Below are positions 26,201-38,153 of a DNA stretch of 64,000 bases, piece by piece; position 1 is the stretch's first letter, and each line of letters begins with the position of its first letter. A program made the translations under genes and the position numbers. Source of the DNA: Bispira polyomma (taxonomy: Eukaryota); NCBI GenBank assembly GCA_965649765.1, contig OZ287757.1, forward strand, positions 47,306,001 to 47,370,000, in the 5' to 3' direction. A model generated the notes under the pieces. The model was not told where the DNA came from. It worked only from the letters and a program-made list of their open reading frames with translations, and did not search any database.

Positions 26201-27643
26201 GCAAGTCTACTGCACAACAAGGGCCAAAGATTTGAATTCACAATAGCAGAGTTAGCGTTGACTTAATAGTATTTCAGGTACTCTCCATCAAAAATAAAGA
26301 ATTTAGTTGGGTTTTATGTCACTTTCAACAGCATATGGATATCATGATGGCCAGATGCAGCAGTGAATAAAACCAGTGCTGAAGACACTGTAAACCACTG
26401 AACGTACAGCAAGTACCTGACAAATTTTTCCCACATGAAAGAATGAACAGTGATTGCGGCCCTTCCACCGAAATAGGGAAGCTGTATTCCATATTATTGC
26501 AGAAAGTTTTCACGTATTTTCTAAAGGTTTACCTGCCAGTATGTTCTTGTGAAAATGATAAGCTTAGAAAATATTTGTCATGTGATAGTATGTATTATTA
26601 TCACCTGTGATATTAGCTGGCTTTGATAAGAGTTTTGATAGACGTTTTAAAAAGAATGCAGACCAGGGTTAATTTGTTATATTTTCATCAACAATATATT
26701 TCTTAATATGTGTTTAATTCAATTTTTCCAACAAAACTCCATTTTTCCTGCTCGAACCCTATTGGTAAAAAAAAAATGAATATTTTATCATACAAAAGTC
26801 AGTTACTTGTATTCTAAAAGTAAAATTTTATCTACAAAGTAGGTAAGCATTTTTCGAGAATATGATATGCCACAATTTGGATTCAAGTAAGTGTAAAACC
26901 CAAAAAAGGATCTAAATCTAAGTAATCGCTCGTTAAAGAATACTACCTCTCTTCCACAATCATGAACATCCATCCCCACACACAAGTAATACACTTAATA
27001 GGTATAACCATTCCACTATTCCATTTATAACTTATAATTTTCACCAAAGCTTACATCATTTAAAGTGATATCCAATTTAAGCTACTTTACTGTGTCATTT
27101 TTTAAATCATAGAAATACTACTATTAAAGTAATTGATTGATGGATTGGCTTGTTTCTTATACGACATAAGCACTTATGCCATGCTATGTGTTTACTAGTA
27201 TTATATGGAAAGCATTTAAGGAAAGATTCCCCTAACCAACAGCCTTAACTTCTTCAAATGATAAAAAACGATGTTTTATGTAATTATATGCCTATAAACT
27301 ACCTTCTAAACACACTTAAATCTAAAAAGATCTAAATTTCTTTTTTTTTTCTTTTTTTTTTCTTTTTTAAGGCATGGTAATTAATATTTTTAGGCTTGTA
27401 ACTTACACTGTGTCTTAAATTAAGAGGGACGCTCCTTATATTGTTAGGGGTAATATTGATTTAACAACTCACTGTCTTCTACTACTGCAGATAATCTTAT
27501 ATAAGTTAGACTTCTGCCTAGTTATGCACATATTTTCAGAAGGGGACTTTGCCAATCGCCTGTTAAGAGTCTGCTGAGGAACAGTTTAACTGAATCTGCT
27601 GAGGAGAAGTGTAACTGAATCTGCTGAGGAGAAGAGAAGAACC

Positions 27644-27958
27644 ATGCATCAGATGCTATTACTACTCTTGTTTCTTCCCGCTGCTGTGGCCCTTGGTAGG
27701 CCAGCGCCCCTTGGTAGCCCAGAGCCCTTTGGTAGCCCAGCACCCTTTGGTAGCACAGCACCCCGTGGTAGCCCAGAGCCCTTTGGTAACCCAGCGCCCT
27801 TTGGTAGCACAGCGCCCCGTGGTAGCCCAGAGCCCTTTGGTAGCCCAGTGCCCTTTGGTAGCACAGCGCCGCGTGGTAGCCCACCGACCCTTGGTAGCAC
27901 AGCCACGTGCAACACAGAACAGGACAGCTACTCTGTGACCGTGATACAAAATGCTACA
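27644..27958 (+). CDS. Secreted repeat/Cys-rich protein, copy 2, exon 1
   Basis: MHQMLLLLLFLPAAVA plus 12 hexapeptide units; donor ACA|gttaaat. Confidence 0.8.
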
Positions 27959-28946
27959 GTTAAATCTGTTTTAATATGAATTCTAGTTATCTTGTAGTTA
28001 ATGTCTTTTGAAGTACCAAACTTTTAAACCAGGGGTGGTATTCTCGGCAAAAGTGACAATTCATTAATTACTTCCATGTCAAGTATTTGTCTTCATTTTT
28101 TTTTTGGCTTAATGAGACCCACGTGTAATATTCTCGATGAAATGTTTATTATTACTTATGGTGTAGAATAAAAACTTGCTAAGAATTCAAGTGAGAAAAC
28201 TAACATGCTCCGTTAAATGGTACTATATTCATTTTAGCACAAAAAGTTAGAGCTGAGGAAAATGGACTGTAATAAGTATATTTAACAAGTAAAAAGAAAA
28301 GTGTTGATTCTAAATGAAACAAAAAAGCAAGTGGAGTTAATTTCTCTTTTCATGAGAACAGCACTTTACTTACTAAAAGCCTGGTTACACCTACACGTGC
28401 TGGAGCTACATGTGTGTGACGTTTTGAACTGTCTTGAAACGTAGTAAAAGGTAATGCAAAAGTGAGGATCCCTGCCACGTTCGTTCTGTGATGTTGCTTA
28501 AACGTCACCATTTAGTCCAATGCCATGATTACTTCAAACTGTTTGAAATAATCGTGGTAGAGCTCTCCATTTCTTGAGGACATCTCCACTCATCTGTATA
28601 AGTAGCATAACATAGCAGTAAGAAGCAGTAAGTTACAGCAGGTAGTAGTAGGTAGTATCACATCTGTATTCGTCGTGGAACGTTTCACCAAATAACAGAA
28701 CGCAACCAAACGCAGCAGTAAGTAGCAGTACAGTAGCTCTACGTAGTAGTAGGCAATGATATCCTACCAGTAATGTGTTCGATTTATGCCCCCGCTCCGT
28801 GTGTATAAGTACCAACATCATCATTGGACAGGTAATATTTACACTAGAGTCTTTTGTTAGTCGTGATATATTTGACCCTCAAAATATCACAGAAAAATTA
28901 TAAAGCTTAATGTACATTGAATGGTCTGGAAATCTCACAAGCATGC

Positions 28947-29728
28947 TAAAACATCAAGACTTTATTGCTATTAAAGTACAAATATCAGGACTTTATTGCT
29001 ATTAAAGTACAAATAACAGGACTTTATTGCTATTAAATTACAACATCAGGACTTTATTGCTATTATAAGTACAAACATCAGAACTTTATTGCTATTGTAA
29101 GTACAAACATTAGGACTTTATTACTATTAAAGTACAAACATCAGGACTTTATTACTATTAAAGTACAAACATCAGGACTTTATTGCTATTAATGTACAAA
29201 CATCAGGACTTTATTGCTATTAAAGTACAAATATCAGAACTTTATTGCTATTAAAGTACAAACATCAGGACTTTATTGCTATCATAAGTACAAACATCAG
29301 GACTTTATTACTATTAAAGTACAAACATCAGGACTTTATTGCTCTTAAAATACAAACATCAGGACTTTATTGCTATTATAAGTACAAACATCAGGACTTT
29401 ATTGCTATAAAAATAGAAATATCAGCACTTTATTGCTATTATAAGAACAAACATCAGGACTTTATTGCTATTAAAGTACAAACATCAGGACTTTATTGCT
29501 ATTAAAGTACAAACATCAGGACTTCATTGCTATTAAAGTACCAACATCAAGGCTTTATTGCTATTAAAGTACAAACATCCGGACTTTATTGCTATTAAAG
29601 TACAAACATCAGGACTTTATTGCTATTAAAGTACAAACATCAGGACTTTATTGCTATTAAAGTATAAATTTCAGGACTTTATTGCTATTAAAGTACAAAC
29701 ATCAGGACAAATATCGGGACATAATTGC
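28947..29728 (+). repeat. 31-bp minisatellite, ~25 units
   Basis: Direct tandem repeats. Confidence 0.95.
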
Positions 29729-30058
29729 CATTATCTTACACCAGCTGTCTAATACTTGGGTATGACATGAGCCCTTTGTGACAGTCTCATAGATAGTTTG
29801 TACAAAACATGACACACAGGAGAGGTGTATGGCCAACAAGGATTGGTTGAAAGCAAATGACCCTGCAAAACTGAGGGGTGTCAGCTTGATAGTATCAGGT
29901 GCTATCTGATATTGCCGCCATGTTGGAAGTAATATGTAAGGCTTTCATGGATTGGTTGGAAGCAATCGACCTAGCTAAACTGATAGGTATCAGATTAATA
30001 TTTATCACACTGCTCACCTGTGTCTTTTTACAAATCTTGTTTTCTCTGGTATTTTCAG

Positions 30059-30122: not shown

Positions 30123-30489
30123 GTATTTGGTAGTATTTGTAATACGCTACAGTCAGTCTGTGTGGTCAATAATGTGCTTCTAGTACCCTGATAACGGTTA
30201 AAAGTTAACTGTACATGTCTAGGTTTCGAATCCGGTTATCACCCCATATAATGAGGTCTCACCTGACTACAATTTGCTCACCACAAGCCTGGGTTCTCAC
30301 ACCTCTCCACCAGTTGTTCACTCTCCACTCTCTGAAGAAGCATATATACTATCAATGCTGCCACACATGGGGCAATGATTATAACACTGCCCATTACAGG
30401 CAATCTACCCATGCATTCACCTTCTTTTTAAGGGAAGAAGTCAATGTAAAAACAGATTTATTAAAATGTTGTTAATAGTTACAACGTTA

Positions 30490-31153
30490 CATTGTTATAC
30501 ATTAAGTATTACTACATTGTTACACATCAAGTATTAATAAATTCAATTATTAATACATTGCTACACATCAAGTATTATATATAGCTACACATCTAGTATT
30601 AATATATTGCTATACATCAATCATTAATATATTGCCACACATCAAGTATTAATATACTGCTACACATCAAGTATTAATACATAGCTACACATCAATTAAT
30701 AATACATAGCTACACATCAAGTATTAATACATAGCTATACATCAAGTATTAATACATAGCTACACATCAAGTATTAATACATAGCTATACATCAAGTATT
30801 AATACACAGCTACACATCAATTAATAATACATAGCTACACATCAAGTATTAATACATAGCTATACATCAAGTATTAATACATAGCTACACATCAAGTATT
30901 AATACATAGCTATACATCAAGTATTAATACACAGCTACACATCAAGTATTAATACATAGCTACACATCAAGCATTAATACATAGCTATACATCAAGTATT
31001 AATACACAGCTACACATCAAGTATTAATACATAGCTACACATCAAGTATTAATACATAGCTATACATCAAGTATTAATACATAGCTACACATCAAGTATT
31101 AATACATAGCTATACATCAAGTATTAATACATTGCTACACAACAAGTATTAAT
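30490..31153 (+). repeat. 25-bp minisatellite, ~26 units
   Basis: Direct tandem repeats; tac/tat variants alternate in a 50-bp higher-order pattern. Confidence 0.95.
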
Positions 31154-31430
31154 CCTGTCTGACAAGTTATCCGACCTTGTGTCTCAGTCAACTTCATAAC
31201 TGATCGAGTGTTTTTGGTCTAACATTGGCCAAAATAGTAAGTTATTGGCACCCAAATAATCACCATATAGTCTAGAGTAATGTTTTACACAGGCCACACT
31301 AGGCTCAAAAGGACAAACTTGTGTGGAAATCGATTTGATGTGATTTAGGTATAACATCGCTTTCAACATATTTTATAGGTCATATCACAACATGCAATAT
31401 ATACTAGTTGGTCAATGTTGTACACTCTAA

Positions 31431-31941: not shown

Positions 31942-32152
31942 TGATAGTCACTGCATTAAGCATGGCTTCTCAGTCGCAGAAATTTCATATATTACAGTAA
32001 TGCTGATAAACAATTTGTTTACTGAGACAGCAGCCTATTAGAACACTTACTGATAGCCAATAGCAGGCTGGTTCACTCAGGCATTTTGCCGCCCTTTCTA
32101 TTGTGAGGGCATTGCAAAACTAGAAGTTGAATAAGCAACAACTAAAATTTTG
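31942..32152 (+). repeat. Ngaro split direct repeat A1 (211 bp)
   Basis: Identical by eye to 37691-37901. Confidence 0.95.
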
Positions 32153-32340
32153 AAAGAAACGACGCCATCTTGTCAATAGAAAAAAGTTGGCAAGATTCAG
32201 AAGAGTTTTACAAGTTTTAGTGTTTTATTAATTTACTTATACATCTTATACCATTTTATTTTATACACAAGTGTTTATCATATACAAGGAGGGTGTTAAA
32301 CGGATTATTACATTGTTGTGAACAAATCCTATGACTCATC

Positions 32341-33792
32341 ATGGGCAGAGGTAAGAAGCGTCAACCTGCTACAAGCATAGCTTCGTGTTCTCGATGTGAC
32401 ATCTCACATACCAGACCTGTTGGGAGCAGATGTAAACGTCAATTAGTGTCGGACGAAATAGGAGGCTTGCAGAGCGATTCCGTAACTACACAAGACCACG
32501 AAACTTCGATAAGCATGAGCGAATCTGGCACAGCCGTAAGTAGTGATTCTTTCTACCGGGACGCGTTTCATGAACAACAGTCCATGATGAATAACATTTT
32601 AAAAACAGTGTCAAAATTACAAGAAGATATGTCCGCCCTGAAAGAAAATAAAACCCGCTTATGTCCCATGAGTCCTGACAAAACTACAGCTGAATCAGAT
32701 CAACAAGGTTCAGGTCCACTGATCCGACAGAAGTTTAATAGGCAGTGCAGAAGTAGCACACAAGGGCGTACACAGCCTCAGGGTACACTTCGCAGAGATT
32801 CTCGTCTACCGATTCCAGATTTCTACAATGACGTACCTCCACATTCACATAACCGTGCACAGAATACACCTCAGTCAGCAGCATTACTACCCACACCAAG
32901 CATCGTGTCTCAGGGGCAGAACCTATTCAATACGACGTCTCAGAGACTGCTTCCAAGTGAACAAGGTCCACAACAAGCGGGTTGCACAGGTCTTCAACCA
33001 CATCACAACACGACTGCACACAATGCCTTCTCACAACAAGCGTCAAACCACACACAAAGAGCAATGCAAGATTCGATCATCCCATCTACAGACGTACTTC
33101 GGCAGTCCTCGTTAATACAAAACGAAGTAAGCAGACGATTGGCCCAGTATGACAGTTGGTCAAGCAGCGACTACATTCAGGGTAAGTCAACTAAGAAAAA
33201 GTCGGGAAGGTACAACATTTCAGAAGTTTGCATATCCGACCCAATAGTACGTTGGCCGAATGAGGGAAATTTAGCGGGGGTCTCAAAGAAACGTATCGCA
33301 TACGATGAACTCACAGTAGCACAATTTGGCGCGGGTCAAATTCAGAACATTTTACAAGTTCAAAACCAGGTCATAGCGACAGCTATGCTAAAACAGCTAG
33401 GTGATTCATTAAGAGACAGTGCCAACCTATCCTGGCAAGTCGCGCGGGGCGCATACGCCTGTAGTATGCACGATGTGGAAGAGGGAAGGCTGTGTTGGAC
33501 GGATGAACACAAATGGGCGATGAATCGCCTGTCCTACTCCCAAACGTTGATTTCAAATCCATCCGGAGCATCAAATTCCACTAACGCGTCTGGTAACAAA
33601 CCCGAGATTCCATGTCGACATTTTCAAAAGAACACTTGTCAGCACAAAGGTGACCACGAGGGCCACTCAACCGTCTTCAAGCACATCTGTGCTAATTGTT
33701 TCCGCATTTCCAGACGACAGAATCCCCATCCGGAAACCAAGTGTTTCAAAATACATGGGAAACCAGAGGTCAACACGACGCACACTCAATAG
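32341..33792 (+). CDS. gag: Ngaro ORF1, Gag-like (483 aa)
   Basis: N-terminal CxxCxxxH..C motif; C-terminal Cys/His fingers (CRHFQKNTC...H, HICANC...H...C). Confidence 0.9.
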   Translation: MGRGKKRQPATSIASCSRCDISHTRPVGSRCKRQLVSDEIGGLQSDSVTTQDHETSISMSESGTAVSSDSFYRDAFHEQQSMMNNILKTVSKLQEDMSALKENKTRLCPMSPDKTTAESDQQGSGPLIRQKFNRQCRSSTQGRTQPQGTLRRDSRLPIPDFYNDVPPHSHNRAQNTPQSAALLPTPSIVSQGQNLFNTTSQRLLPSEQGPQQAGCTGLQPHHNTTAHNAFSQQASNHTQRAMQDSIIPSTDVLRQSSLIQNEVSRRLAQYDSWSSSDYIQGKSTKKKSGRYNISEVCISDPIVRWPNEGNLAGVSKKRIAYDELTVAQFGAGQIQNILQVQNQVIATAMLKQLGDSLRDSANLSWQVARGAYACSMHDVEEGRLCWTDEHKWAMNRLSYSQTLISNPSGASNSTNASGNKPEIPCRHFQKNTCQHKGDHEGHSTVFKHICANCFRISRRQNPHPETKCFKIHGKPEVNTTHTQ

Positions 33793-33954
33793 GACGGGAA
33801 ACCGCATACAGACACCACTGCTGCACGCATAACTCAAACATCTCGGAGAGGCACAGAATGGGACACAAGTATCCAGCATGATGACTTTGAGCATAAGTAT
33901 AAAATTGAAGGGAAAGACGTTGAGATATATTTTAATGAGTTAGGTAACAGTTCT

Positions 33955-36492
33955 ATGGACACTACTAGCTGTGTAATAACCAAGAGTAAAACAAACGTTT
34001 TGCAAATTAACACAGTACAACAGACAGAATCTATATTTGATGATCATATGTTAAATCTAAAAGACGTTAATTTAGTCATCAGTAATGTAAATCAACAAGT
34101 GACTAGTGGTAGTGATATGTGCAGTGACAAGACTCGATCTGACTCTATGAACAATTGTAGTAGCAACTCCATGTCAAAAGTAGATAGGAGTAGTGTTGAT
34201 GTATATTTTAGTTCATATATATCCAGTTTGGATGGATATCACTTATGTTATATTGTATGTAATGATAAGAGGCACATTTCAGGAGTGTACACCTGGACTA
34301 ATGTGTGCGGTCGAGTGTCTCTACATAAATCTGACTGCACTGTGGCTAATATATGGCCAGTAACATTTTACACAACAATGACAATAGATGTCATTGAGAC
34401 AAAAGCCAAACACTTCACAAATGCAACACGTTTAAAACAACACACAAATAAACAGATTCGACAGAGTATCACACACACACGAACAAAGACAAATAAGGCT
34501 CAATATTATTTGGACATTATTGATGAAATATCTAGAGCAGTTCACCAAGGTACACAAACACAAACAGAAGACAACATTGACACTCGACTAGTCAAACGAA
34601 AAAGTATAAAATCAGTAGACACAAATGAACATGTTGCCAATTTTGATGACATTGAGATACTACAGAATTTGATTATAAATGACCACATTGATGCATTAGG
34701 TGACACTAATACAAAAAAAGAAAACAAATTGAAGATAAAAGTGATAATGGACAACAGGACTTATGGTTTTATCACACACGAAGAAGAAACTTTCAATTTT
34801 GTTGGACCAGAGAGACAGACAGTTGACATTGACTCATACGATAAGTTAATTAAGGTGGCTGAGATGATAAAACAAACAAACTTACCAAATTACAGAATGG
34901 CAAGAATACCAATTAAGAGTAATCTTAATGTGAGTAATTGGAAGAAATATCTAACCAATTACCCAAACCAGAAATTACTTGATTACATACAATTCGGATT
35001 TCCCATTTCGCTGTATGAGCGAGACAGACTGAATGTAAAAGATATCAAAAATCATTTCTCAGCCTTCACCTTCCCAAATGTGGTAGACAAGTATTTCACC
35101 ACAGAAATAGAAAGAGGCACAATAATAGGACCAATAAATCAAACTCTTCACAAGGACATACATTGTTCTCCCCTTATGTCTAGGCCTAAAGACAATAATC
35201 AGCGCAGATTAATTCTTAACTTATCTCATCCTTTAGGCAGATCAGTAAATGATTGTACCGTAAAGGACAAATACGACAACACCGACTTTGACTTAAAATT
35301 ACCGACTATTGACCAAATTACCACTTACATTAAATTTTTAGGACCTAAGGCCACCTTAGCGAAATTGGACATAGCCCACGCATTTCGAAACTTACGTGTT
35401 GACCCTCTTGATTGTTTAAAACTAGGTTATGTTTGGGAAAATCAACACTTTATTGATCTAAGTCTTACTTTCGGACTCACCCATGGCACGTCTATCTTTA
35501 TGATGGCATCAGACGCAATTACTTACATCATGACAGAAAAAGGTTTTAAAGTATTTAACTACATCGATGATTACATTATTGTAGAAAAAGAAGATAAGGC
35601 CACCTTAGCCTATGAAACCTTACAAAGGATTGTAACTGAACTTGGTCTACCCATCAATCCCAAGAAATTAGTCCCCCCTAGTAAAAAGGTCACATGTATG
35701 GGCATAACAATTGATATTGCACACGCAACTCTCAGTATTGACGAAGAAAAACTCAATTCAATATATGACATTTGTGTCACATTCAGCTCATTAAGGAAAG
35801 TACCTAGGAATAAGTATCAATCATTATTGGGTAAACTCCTGTATATACAGAGGTGTGTGAAACATTCACGCATATTTATGAATCGGATGCTTACAGTACT
35901 ACGAAATTCCAAACATAGCAAATGGATAAACTTAACGGACGAGTTTCATAAGGACCTGAATTGGTTCTTACGTTTCTTAAAAGAATTCAATGGTACTACA
36001 AAGTATAGCATTGAAAACCAACACTATGACATACTATTTCATGGTGACGCGTGTCTCTCCGGCATAGGTGGCGTGTGGGATAAGAAAGTTTTTCAAACAG
36101 CGTTACCAATGTTTTTAACAGAATCACTATCTATAGTACACTTTGAAATGATCTGCGTACTATTAGCATTGAAATTATGGGGTAAACATTGGCAGAACAA
36201 ACGAATTAAAATCAAATCAGATAACATGGCAGTGGTTTCTGTAGTGCGGTCGCTAAAAACTAAAGATAAATATTTAAGCTTATGTTTGAGAAACATTTGG
36301 CTACTCTGTGCAAAATACAATATAGACCTCTTAATAGAACACATACCAGGTAAAGACAACGTTATTGCAGACTGTTTATCTCGTTGGCATGAATTAGGAC
36401 ATTATGGACAAAAAATGAAGGACTTGATTAAGGAAAATTTTGAAATGTACAATATACCACTAGACATGTTCCTAATGGACACTTTAATTTGA
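33955..36492 (+). CDS. pol: Ngaro ORF2, reverse transcriptase and RNase H (845 aa from the first ATG)
   Basis: RRLILNLS, KLDIAHAFR, LTFG, YIDD; RNase H motifs DAC, FEM, SDNMAVV and HIPGKDNVIADCLSR. Confidence 0.95.
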   Translation: MDTTSCVITKSKTNVLQINTVQQTESIFDDHMLNLKDVNLVISNVNQQVTSGSDMCSDKTRSDSMNNCSSNSMSKVDRSSVDVYFSSYISSLDGYHLCYIVCNDKRHISGVYTWTNVCGRVSLHKSDCTVANIWPVTFYTTMTIDVIETKAKHFTNATRLKQHTNKQIRQSITHTRTKTNKAQYYLDIIDEISRAVHQGTQTQTEDNIDTRLVKRKSIKSVDTNEHVANFDDIEILQNLIINDHIDALGDTNTKKENKLKIKVIMDNRTYGFITHEEETFNFVGPERQTVDIDSYDKLIKVAEMIKQTNLPNYRMARIPIKSNLNVSNWKKYLTNYPNQKLLDYIQFGFPISLYERDRLNVKDIKNHFSAFTFPNVVDKYFTTEIERGTIIGPINQTLHKDIHCSPLMSRPKDNNQRRLILNLSHPLGRSVNDCTVKDKYDNTDFDLKLPTIDQITTYIKFLGPKATLAKLDIAHAFRNLRVDPLDCLKLGYVWENQHFIDLSLTFGLTHGTSIFMMASDAITYIMTEKGFKVFNYIDDYIIVEKEDKATLAYETLQRIVTELGLPINPKKLVPPSKKVTCMGITIDIAHATLSIDEEKLNSIYDICVTFSSLRKVPRNKYQSLLGKLLYIQRCVKHSRIFMNRMLTVLRNSKHSKWINLTDEFHKDLNWFLRFLKEFNGTTKYSIENQHYDILFHGDACLSGIGGVWDKKVFQTALPMFLTESLSIVHFEMICVLLALKLWGKHWQNKRIKIKSDNMAVVSVVRSLKTKDKYLSLCLRNIWLLCAKYNIDLLIEHIPGKDNVIADCLSRWHELGHYGQKMKDLIKENFEMYNIPLDMFLMDTLI

Positions 36493-36500
36493 TTTCAGGA

Positions 36501-37478
36501 ATGACAGAAACAGCTAGACCTCTCTTGACAAGTGCAGTCCAGAGAATTAGACAGTGTCACAGACCCAGAACTACTAAACAATATAACAGCCAGTTTAGAT
36601 TATTCCTGGCCTTCACAGTATACTACCAGCTGAATGAAACATTCAGTTTCAATACCATTATTACATTCATGGAATATCTAGTACAATCTGGAGTTTCACC
36701 CAAAGTGATAAACAACTACTTGTCAGCGATACGTCATACTTGCAAATTTCTTAACATTACTGACAAAGGTCTTTATGATCAAAGATTACCACTGTTTCAA
36801 AGATCAGTCGAATTATCCTCAAGATTTTCTCCCAAGGTCAAAGGTGTCTTCGACCTTCACCAATTGATAGAAATTTCAAAAACATGTGAAATTCTTCATT
36901 GCCCTGAATTATTCAGAACAGCGTTTTTGGTTGCATATTTCGGATTCCTGCGAATCTCTAATTTGACTACAACTTCCGGATACCCATTTGACCCAACTAG
37001 ACACATTACCAGGGATGACTTGGTATTTGCTCACCCTGGCATTCATTTGATTCTAAAGTGGTCGAAGACGAATCAGACCAGATCACATACAGACATAATT
37101 TAACTTCCCGCTCTTAGCAACCCTTGGCTTTGTCCACTCACTGCTGTCAAGAAATTATTTCAAAAATTTCCAATGTCAGGGAAAGCACCATTATTAGCTG
37201 ATCCTTCAGACAAAGATAAATGCCTTTCAGATACAAAGCTCAGGATTGCTTTAAAACGCATACTGACACACATAAACATACCTCATGAAGGACACTCATT
37301 TCATTGTTTCAGACGATCAGGCGCATCACTAGCCTTCAATTCAAATATACAACTGCAACATATCCAGAAACATGGGTGTTGGAAATCAGATGCAGTTTGG
37401 TCCTACCTACAATCCACTTCTCATGCCGCCTCCATCATCCCTTCCACCTTTGCTTCCATCATTTCTTCAAAATTTTAA
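36501..37478 (+). pseudogene. Ngaro ORF3, tyrosine recombinase with one in-frame stop (TAA 37101-37103)
   Basis: FGFLRISN (R), KWSKTNQ (K), HCFRRSGA (HxxR), HGCWKSDAVWSY (W, Y); the two ORF-track pieces are in the same frame. Confidence 0.9.
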
Positions 37479-37486
37479 TTTGGCCT

Positions 37487-37690
37487 TGGCATTTTAAAAA
37501 TTTTAAATTAGAAATTTTATGTACAGATGTATATACAAATTAATGAATTATGAATAAATTTATCCCAAACTGCATCCGATTCTCATCTACCAAACAGACC
37601 CACACCATCATTATGACCTTCACTATTAGATAAAGGTCAAACTTACCTCTCTGACCCTTCATGGTCACATTCAAACATTTCATGAGACTG
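37487..37690 (+). repeat. Ngaro split direct repeat B1 (204 bp)
   Basis: Matches 37966-38153 apart from a 16-bp indel. Confidence 0.95.
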
Positions 37691-37901
37691 TGATAGTCAC
37701 TGCATTAAGCATGGCTTCTCAGTCGCAGAAATTTCATATATTACAGTAATGCTGATAAACAATTTGTTTACTGAGACAGCAGCCTATTAGAACACTTACT
37801 GATAGCCAATAGCAGGCTGGTTCACTCAGGCATTTTGCCGCCCTTTCTATTGTGAGGGCATTGCAAAACTAGAAGTTGAATAAGCAACAACTAAAATTTT
37901 G
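37691..37901 (+). repeat. Ngaro split direct repeat A2
   Basis: Matches A1. Confidence 0.95.
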
Positions 37902-37965
37902 CCCAAACCACCCTCCCCCTTTTTAGATTGTACTAATGTATGTATCATATGGGTTATTTTACGTA

Positions 37966-38153
37966 TGGCATTTTAAAAATTTTAAATTAGAAATTTTATG
38001 TACAGATGTATATACAAATTAATGAATTATGAATAAATTTATCCCAAACTGCATCCGATTCTCATCTACCAAACAGACCCACACCATCATTATGACCTTC
38101 ACTATTAGATAAAGGTCAAACTTACCTCTCCATTCAAACATTTCATGAGACTG
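37966..38153 (+). repeat. Ngaro split direct repeat B2 (188 bp)
   Basis: Matches B1. Confidence 0.95.

Follow-up and report, generated by a model that had tools for sequence, protein, structure and literature searches.

A retrotransposon of Ngaro-like structure, carrying a tyrosine recombinase (YR), lies in a 64,000-nucleotide stretch of the Bispira polyomma genome (NCBI GenBank assembly GCA_965649765.1, contig OZ287757.1, positions 47,306,001 to 47,370,000 of the forward strand), which is called the window throughout, and its gag-like and pol open reading frames (ORFs) run in one frame across a single amber codon. This in-frame layout persists in the family of the element and in five relatives, and TAA is avoided as the gag stop. 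Taken with the evidence presented below, the layout makes it probable that Gag-Pol is produced by stop-codon readthrough. Positions are those of the window, features are collected in Table 1, and papers are cited by PubMed Central identifier from the portions of text available to us.

The gag ORF begins at ATG 32341 and ends with CAA TAG at 33787-33792, the amber codon occupying 33790..33792 (+) in the context CAA UAG GAC. Beyond it the frame continues uninterrupted from 33793 up to the TGA at 36490-36492, which gives 483 + 1 + 899 = 1383 codons, and TAG is the sole stop in the gag-pol frame between 33400 and 34300. The first in-frame ATG after the gag stop, at 33955, lies 54 codons downstream, and its -6 and +4 positions are A and G. 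An earlier reading of the sequence alone had described a lone in-frame amber codon, 54 open codons and a 1383-aa fusion, and its coordinates match both the sequence and the ORF listing. The chance of gag and pol sharing a frame is 1 in 3, and an open spacer of 54 codons was found in 1.1% of composition shuffles. Codon reassignment was ruled out, as pol holds 30 CAA/CAG and 12 TGG codons and zero TAG/TAA/TGA. Frameshifting by -1 was rejected for the window because the heptamer G GGA AAC at 33796-33802 sits in the +1 frame and is unreachable from the gag frame.

The stop is not private to this copy. Contigs of three sequencing runs (X1, X2 and X3, from two samples of one study) were compared with window positions 33300-37500; the family copies are thus seen through contigs and not individually in the host genome, and the contigs are those among the matches listed, with 930 weaker ones beyond. 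Each run has a gap-free contig over the stop (depth 122, 153 and 512) and a diverged contig over the same place (depth 21, 25 and 64). Since the former depth is several times the latter, collapsed multiple copies are suggested, depth not being copy number. The high-depth contigs differ from the window by 5, 7 and 2 letters, which equals the count of differences listed elsewhere in their spans; none is listed at the stop, and no listed difference creates a stop. A sense codon in other copies, which the sequence-only reading had named as the mark of a private nonsense mutation, was therefore not found in the high-depth contigs. A diverged family contig also spans the TAG, with 50 differences and 14 gaps over 33627-33961; the letters at the TAG are not visible in it. 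Of the five positions at which the window and the high-depth X1 contig disagree, three (34193, 34337 and 34537) have G in the window and A in the contig, which is too few to call editing.

A metagenome scan with the pol alignment returned eight loci (L001-L008), of which five (L001-L005) span the gag-pol junction. The near-duplicates L006 and L007 begin inside the RNase H and were left out of the junction counts, as was L008, with 22% identity and no match to the pol profile. In 5/5 junction-spanning relatives a single TGA separates gag from pol within a shared frame, and the stop follows the Gag zinc finger in L001, L002, L003 and L005, gag of L004 being internally deleted. Pol of the relatives is 38-41% identical to that of the window and 47-71% identical among themselves. 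Their pol ORFs range from 619 to 1095 codons and the first ATG lies 13, 17, 98, 44 and 4 codons past the stop, and the shared frame has therefore survived much insertion, deletion and ATG turnover. Open spacers of these lengths occurred in 42%, 25%, 0/5000, 3.6% and 71% of shuffles, respectively, and for each relative a shared frame has a chance of 1 in 3. Stops or frameshifts in the spacer, the other sign of decay named by the sequence-only reading, were likewise not seen: the spacer is free of gaps in the high-depth family contigs and the frame is open in the relatives. Scans found no relatives in viral contigs or in prokaryote genomes.

The choice of stop codon is also skewed. The six elements, the window included, end gag with TGA in five cases, TAG in one and TAA in none (0/6), whereas TAA ends 7 of 11 pol and YR ORFs (Fisher p 0.035; the pol stop of the near-duplicate L007 is omitted). 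TGA accounts for 5/6 of the gag stops versus 1/11 of the pol/YR stops (p 0.005), and the nucleotide at +4 is C at 3/5 of the TGA stops. Although UGA and UAG are read through better than UAA (PMC13517186), no gag stop context matches a listed type I-III readthrough motif exactly. No -1 slippery heptamer is present in the gag frame of any of the six elements, in four of the five relatives the -1 frame closes 1-19 nt before the gag stop, and neither the relatives nor the window show a sign of codon reassignment.

Protein searches place the end of Gag at the same point. The gag-like ORF has 1221 homologues at E<=0.001, the longest among the 150 best of which has 574 aa. Where the zinc finger is recognisable, the stop follows within 25 aa in 83/93 homologues (median 14; window 15), and as the pol matches and cluster members are also without a full Gag, a stop at this place is the family norm. 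A dedicated search found no longer Gag-containing proteins, which is weak evidence. Ten C-terminally extended Gags match no pol N-terminus and nine of the ten clusters are singletons; the 165-aa Gag tail of P0031 is for this reason only a hint of stop loss. An Atlas search returned hypothetical-protein clusters only, with low recognition.

Sister lineages, in contrast to the window, likely use -1 frameshifting, as judged from protein evidence. The 23 closest short-tailed Gags (rank <=45) include none with a terminal [K/G]N, versus 27/60 of the more distant ones (rank >45), in which the motif is followed by 0-6 residues (homologues P0002-P0151). A AAA AAC is a -1 slippery motif. The pol homologue P0207 runs from the Gag finger through FKKRV into pol, which is the -1 reading of an SKNE* tail, and this, together with the terminal [K/G]N, makes frameshifting likely in those lineages. 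Enrichment of KN alone is modest (22/83 versus a shuffled mean of 14 and maximum of 25).

We then considered RNA structure near the stop. The sequence-only reading had proposed a small hairpin as the stimulator, but this found no support: stretches of 78 nt and 148 nt downstream of the stop are predicted to fold no more stably than their shuffled versions (z 0.25 and 0.24), a hairpin of three GC pairs follows 10/290 codon positions in 33001-33900 and 13/1374 over all of gag-pol, and folding of 33700-36400 as one piece leaves the proposed hairpin unformed. A local H-type pseudoknot 8 nt after the UAG was not found either, 24/60 shuffles being as good. A scan for distant partners instead predicted a helix of 21 base pairs (bp), with one bulge and one mismatch, which begins 8 nt past the stop and pairs this region with the RNase H coding sequence 2.4 kb downstream. 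The duplex is the best of 442 transcript windows (-36.6 versus a mean of -20.1, sd 3.7), no shuffle of the 5' arm paired as well (0/150), and only 4/3000 synonymous recodings of the 3' arm did so. When 2.7 kb was folded whole, pair probabilities were 0.94-1.00 at 19 of the 21 paired positions and 0.52 and 0.73 at the other two. The helix and the small hairpin are mutually exclusive, and the helix appears to be the better stimulator candidate on these predictions. Spacers of 8 nt before stimulatory structures (PMC13517186) and long-range readthrough stimulators (PMC3234231) are both established, and we put forward tentatively that the predicted helix could stimulate readthrough. The relatives differ in this respect: in L001 another distal duplex, beginning at +13, ranks 1-2 of 156 and is accompanied by a long, imperfect stem formed locally; in L002 a local stem of 12 bp begins at +12 (z -2.15); and in L003, L004 and L005 the long-range scan gave nothing above background, L004 having an imperfect local stem. 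An idea that structures accompany non-C +4 contexts and are missing from UGA-C contexts was post hoc and blurred by the L004 local stem, and is not claimed.

The recombinase ORF seems to be reached by another route, for the sequence suggests that splicing yields the recombinase as a fusion to Gag. The predicted donor underlies a QGK that is conserved in 10/11 aligned Gags, and G|GTAA is found at the same G[K/N] position in 4/4 elements covering it. A phase-1 acceptor lies at the YR start in 6/6 elements covering it (the near-duplicates L006 and L007 among them), and that of the window ranks 6 of 343 AGs by our own crude score. The predicted 3.3-kb, phase-1 intron (33182-36498) would join Gag residue 280 to YR in frame, giving 607 codons. 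An ATG at the conserved YR start is missing in four of the five relatives covering it (L002, L003, L006 and L007). Both arms of the long helix are inside the predicted intron, which makes splicing control an alternative role for the helix. In L002, a 25-nt inverted repeat (84%; 3146-3170 and 6315-6339) links the 5' region of pol to the predicted YR acceptor at 6326, and a regulatory role in splicing is possible for the long-range helices of these elements. Between the end of pol and the YR acceptor, non-coding sequence amounts to 250-780 nt in the relatives (L003 3719-3973; L006/L007 474-1255) and to 4 nt in the window.

In the reading that we favour, translation would mostly end at the UAG with release of Gag, while a minority of ribosomes would insert an amino acid, presumably through decoding of the UAG by a near-cognate tRNA, and continue into pol to give the 1383-aa Gag-Pol. 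Readthrough would thus set a high Gag:Pol ratio and carry reverse transcriptase (RT) into the Gag particle, the RT/RNase H being delivered as a low-ratio Gag fusion. The predicted helix would act by stimulating readthrough rather than by controlling splicing. Spliced RNA, with 33182-36498 removed, would supply the Gag N-terminus fused to the recombinase, such that one transcript could give three proteins. The sequence-only reading had also proposed programmed readthrough: the conserved in-frame stop and open frame speak for it, the stimulator it named lacks support, and the mechanism itself is deduced from sequence.

Several points weigh against this reading. The 21-bp helix is not common to the relatives, has no covariation support and came up after several structure tests. 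The window context UAGGAC falls outside the type III contexts listed in the available text of PMC13517186 (UAGGGV, UAGGUA and UAGGAU). Tca2, which has the same layout, gave no readthrough from the junction sequence alone (PMC2194720). L002 and L003 hold in-phase acceptors inside pol (scores 8.5 and 8.2). The five relatives are not independent, as a quick tree groups them in a single clade (SH-aLRT 99) with about three lineages, and one assembly is the source of four of them; the window falls on a different branch, among 30 pols whose junction DNA was unseen, and was itself chosen for the trait. Fused Gag-Pol is absent among the 150 best Gag matches, 59 pol matches and 139 cluster members listed.

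The strongest rival, which we nevertheless consider improbable, is that pol is made without decoding of the stop, through an internal promoter, internal initiation at a downstream AUG or a bypass of the Tca2 type. Tca2 has a gag-UGA-pol arrangement with a minor promoter in the junction, which gave no readthrough in Saccharomyces cerevisiae (PMC2194720), and an in-frame ATG lies 4-98 codons past the stop in every element. However, the position of this ATG is not conserved, and independent initiation offers no reason for pol to stay in the gag frame, for the spacer to stay open or for the stop to be non-TAA in 6/6. Called pol starts differ among full-length siblings in 6/10 clusters, an argument against internal initiation that is weak and gene-caller dependent.

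The conserved gag donor and YR acceptor also make splicing a rival for pol itself: an RNA joining the donor at 33182 to an acceptor inside pol would skip the stop. The element very likely splices, and good phase-1 acceptors are present in the pol 5' region of L002 and L003. By our own crude score, on the other hand, the best in-phase acceptor in the window reaches 4.3 versus 8.4 for that of YR, with 1.7 in L001, 5.4 in L004 and an intermediate 6.5 in L005, and an intron would need neither an open nor an in-frame stretch starting exactly at the gag stop. We therefore regard spliced pol as very unlikely.

Very unlikely, too, is recoding of the stop by A-to-I editing, with the helix recruiting the editing enzyme. 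UAG or UGA becomes the Trp codon UGG by one edit and UAA needs two. Both stop types found at the end of gag fit this, TAA is not among them, and a long predicted duplex adjoins the stop; yet that duplex begins 8 nt downstream and does not cover the stop, and no stop-covering duplex stood out in the relatives. An inherited nonsense mutation that broke a once continuous gag-pol ORF, with mobilisation in trans, is just as remote and largely refuted: the window copy is not pristine, as it carries a YR nonsense codon at 37101-37103, but 83/93 finger-bearing Gag homologues end within 25 aa of the finger, protein searches found no fused form, and the relatives end gag at the corresponding position with another stop codon.

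Stop-codon readthrough at this junction has partial parallels in known systems. Moloney murine leukaemia virus shares a UAG followed by G, an in-frame pol and an 8-nt purine-rich spacer before the structure (PMC13517186, PMC2194720), but it has a UAGGGA context and a local H-type pseudoknot, whereas the window has UAGGAC and no local pseudoknot; the element also has no protease or DDE integrase, and its relatives use UGA. Candida albicans Tca2 likewise keeps pol in the gag frame beyond a single stop (UGA) and has a purine-rich spacer, but it is a long terminal repeat (LTR) element and its bypass mechanism is described as unresolved (PMC2194720). In the tombusvirus PRTE-DRTE interaction, the sequence immediately 3' of the stop is base-paired with a region about 3.5 kb away (PMC3234231), but in that plant RNA virus the contact is made between a stem-loop and the 3' end of the genome, in place of a predicted 21-bp helix with RNase H coding sequence. 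Ngaro-like elements share the A1-ORFs-B1-A2-B2 repeat order, the order gag, RT/RNase H, YR, the lack of a methyltransferase (MT) and a size of about 6 kb; they are described with separate or overlapping ORFs, and the available portions of their descriptions mention no in-frame gag stop, readthrough or spliced YR. The sequence-only reading had stated that ORFs of DIRS-order elements usually overlap: all do so in Xenopus Ngaro elements (PMC9210276), but Ngaro elements are usually without overlaps (PMC3266345).

No paper on readthrough, slippery sites or spliced YR in DIRS or Ngaro elements was found in the literature covered (subscription papers including the Goodwin/Poulter reviews, supplements and Repbase annotations lie outside this scope), the first 300,000 characters of PMC5009743 mention neither DIRS nor Ngaro, and the search gave no example of a kilobase-scale readthrough stimulator in a retroelement. 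Gag-pol readthrough here would thus be a known mechanism in a group where no description of it was found, and would extend beyond the gamma/epsilon-retroviruses and a few LTR elements. The papers searched do not address how RT and recombinase are expressed from one RNA in DIRS-order elements, and the conserved in-frame stop offers a directly testable answer. A distal stimulator could explain the failure of junction-only reporters of the Tca2 type. Annotation pipelines would miscount intact elements if they take an in-frame stop after gag, or a YR ORF lacking an ATG, as a sign of decay. A wider scheme, which is speculative and rather doubtful, would have one clade of Ngaro-like elements make Gag, Gag-Pol by readthrough and Gag-YR by splicing from a single transcript, with the 2.4-kb helix as the switch in the family of the window element and sister lineages using -1 frameshifting at that position, a split within the DIRS order resembling that of MuLV versus HIV; as the helix would switch readthrough on, only full-length unspliced RNA would make RT.

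The element spans 31942..38153 (+), 6212 bp, and self-BLAST of the window gives the repeat order A1-ORFs-B1-A2-B2, with a 64-nt stretch separating A2 and B2. The gag-like, RT/RNase H and YR ORFs are all on one strand, in that order. We accordingly describe it by structure as a Ngaro-like tyrosine-recombinase retrotransposon; its pol tree was made by a quick method from homologues without named reference Ngaro elements. The assignment to Ngaro by the sequence-only reading is borne out in this structural sense by the split direct repeats, the ORF order and the lack of a methyltransferase, the definition being taken from PMC8547959, PMC9210276 and PMC4157794. Loss of the MT is homoplastic among these retrotransposons (PMC4157794).

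Table 1. Features of the Ngaro-like element in window coordinates
Feature	Position	Strand	Remarks
Split direct repeat A1	31942..32152	+	211 nt; 100% identical to 37691-37901 (self-BLAST)
Gag-like ORF1	32341..33792	+	483 aa; C-terminal Cys/His zinc-finger-like motif ends 15 aa before the stop
Predicted 5' splice site	33178..33187	+	CAG G|GTAAGT; intron starts at 33182, phase 1; underlies conserved QGK of Gag
Pol ORF	33793..36492	+	899 codons; ends with TGA 36490-36492
Purine-rich spacer	33793..33800	+	8 nt, 7/8 purines; between stop and predicted helix
Small hairpin CGG-GAAA-CCG	33795..33804	+	3 bp; begins 2 nt downstream of the stop; cannot coexist with the long-range helix
Helix 5' arm	33801..33822	+	predicted 21-bp long-range RNA helix; candidate readthrough stimulator
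Helix 3' arm	36228..36250	+	within the part of pol that encodes RNase H (MAVVSVVR), 2.4 kb downstream
Predicted 3' splice site	36485..36498	+	AG at 36497-36498, phase 1; just past the pol stop, 2 nt before the YR ATG at 36501
YR ORF	36501..37478	+	interrupted by TAA 37101-37103 in the window copy
Split direct repeat B1	37487..37690	+	92% identical to 37966-38153 over 204 columns (self-BLAST)
Split direct repeat A2	37691..37901	+	self-BLAST
Split direct repeat B2	37966..38153	+	16 nt shorter than B1 (self-BLAST)

Within pol, the RT lies at about 35185-35712 (Pfam RVT_1, E 8e-12) and an RNase H-like domain at about 36115-36387 (Pfam RVT_3, E 1e-5). The N-terminal region of pol (~330 aa) is unconserved, and homologues have similarly long, unalignable N-termini. 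Pol terminates 34 aa past the RNase H match, which leaves no room for a methyltransferase, and the element ORFs have no Pfam match to a methyltransferase domain and no family match to a DDE integrase or protease. The Gag ORF has no Pfam match. YR has weak Pfam matches to phage integrase, below the cut-off (E 0.006-0.09), and both HCFR and the terminal Tyr are present in its sequence. The TAA at 37101-37103 interrupts YR in a very young copy, and L002, L003 and L007 have no interruption in the homologous stretch. A 28-nt inverted repeat (79%) relates the end of YR (37373-37400) to both B repeats (37565-37592 and 38044-38071), and a role of it in reverse transcription is possible.

The insertion is very recent, since the tandem duplicate has an empty site (61922|61923) at which the flanks join seamlessly with 99.9% identity. 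Inspection of the junction letters revealed no target-site duplication at the element ends. The host genome is AT-rich. The window is a tandem segmental duplication, in which 8597-29704 matches 38156-59313 at 98.4% and the element is present in one copy alone, and an older copy of the unit, at about 92%, lies at the window start. An 18-nt coding-like repeat (an ORF of PLGSPEPFGS type) and minisatellites of 31 nt and 25 nt, at 27590-27976, 28881-29835 and 30452-31276, recur in each duplicate.

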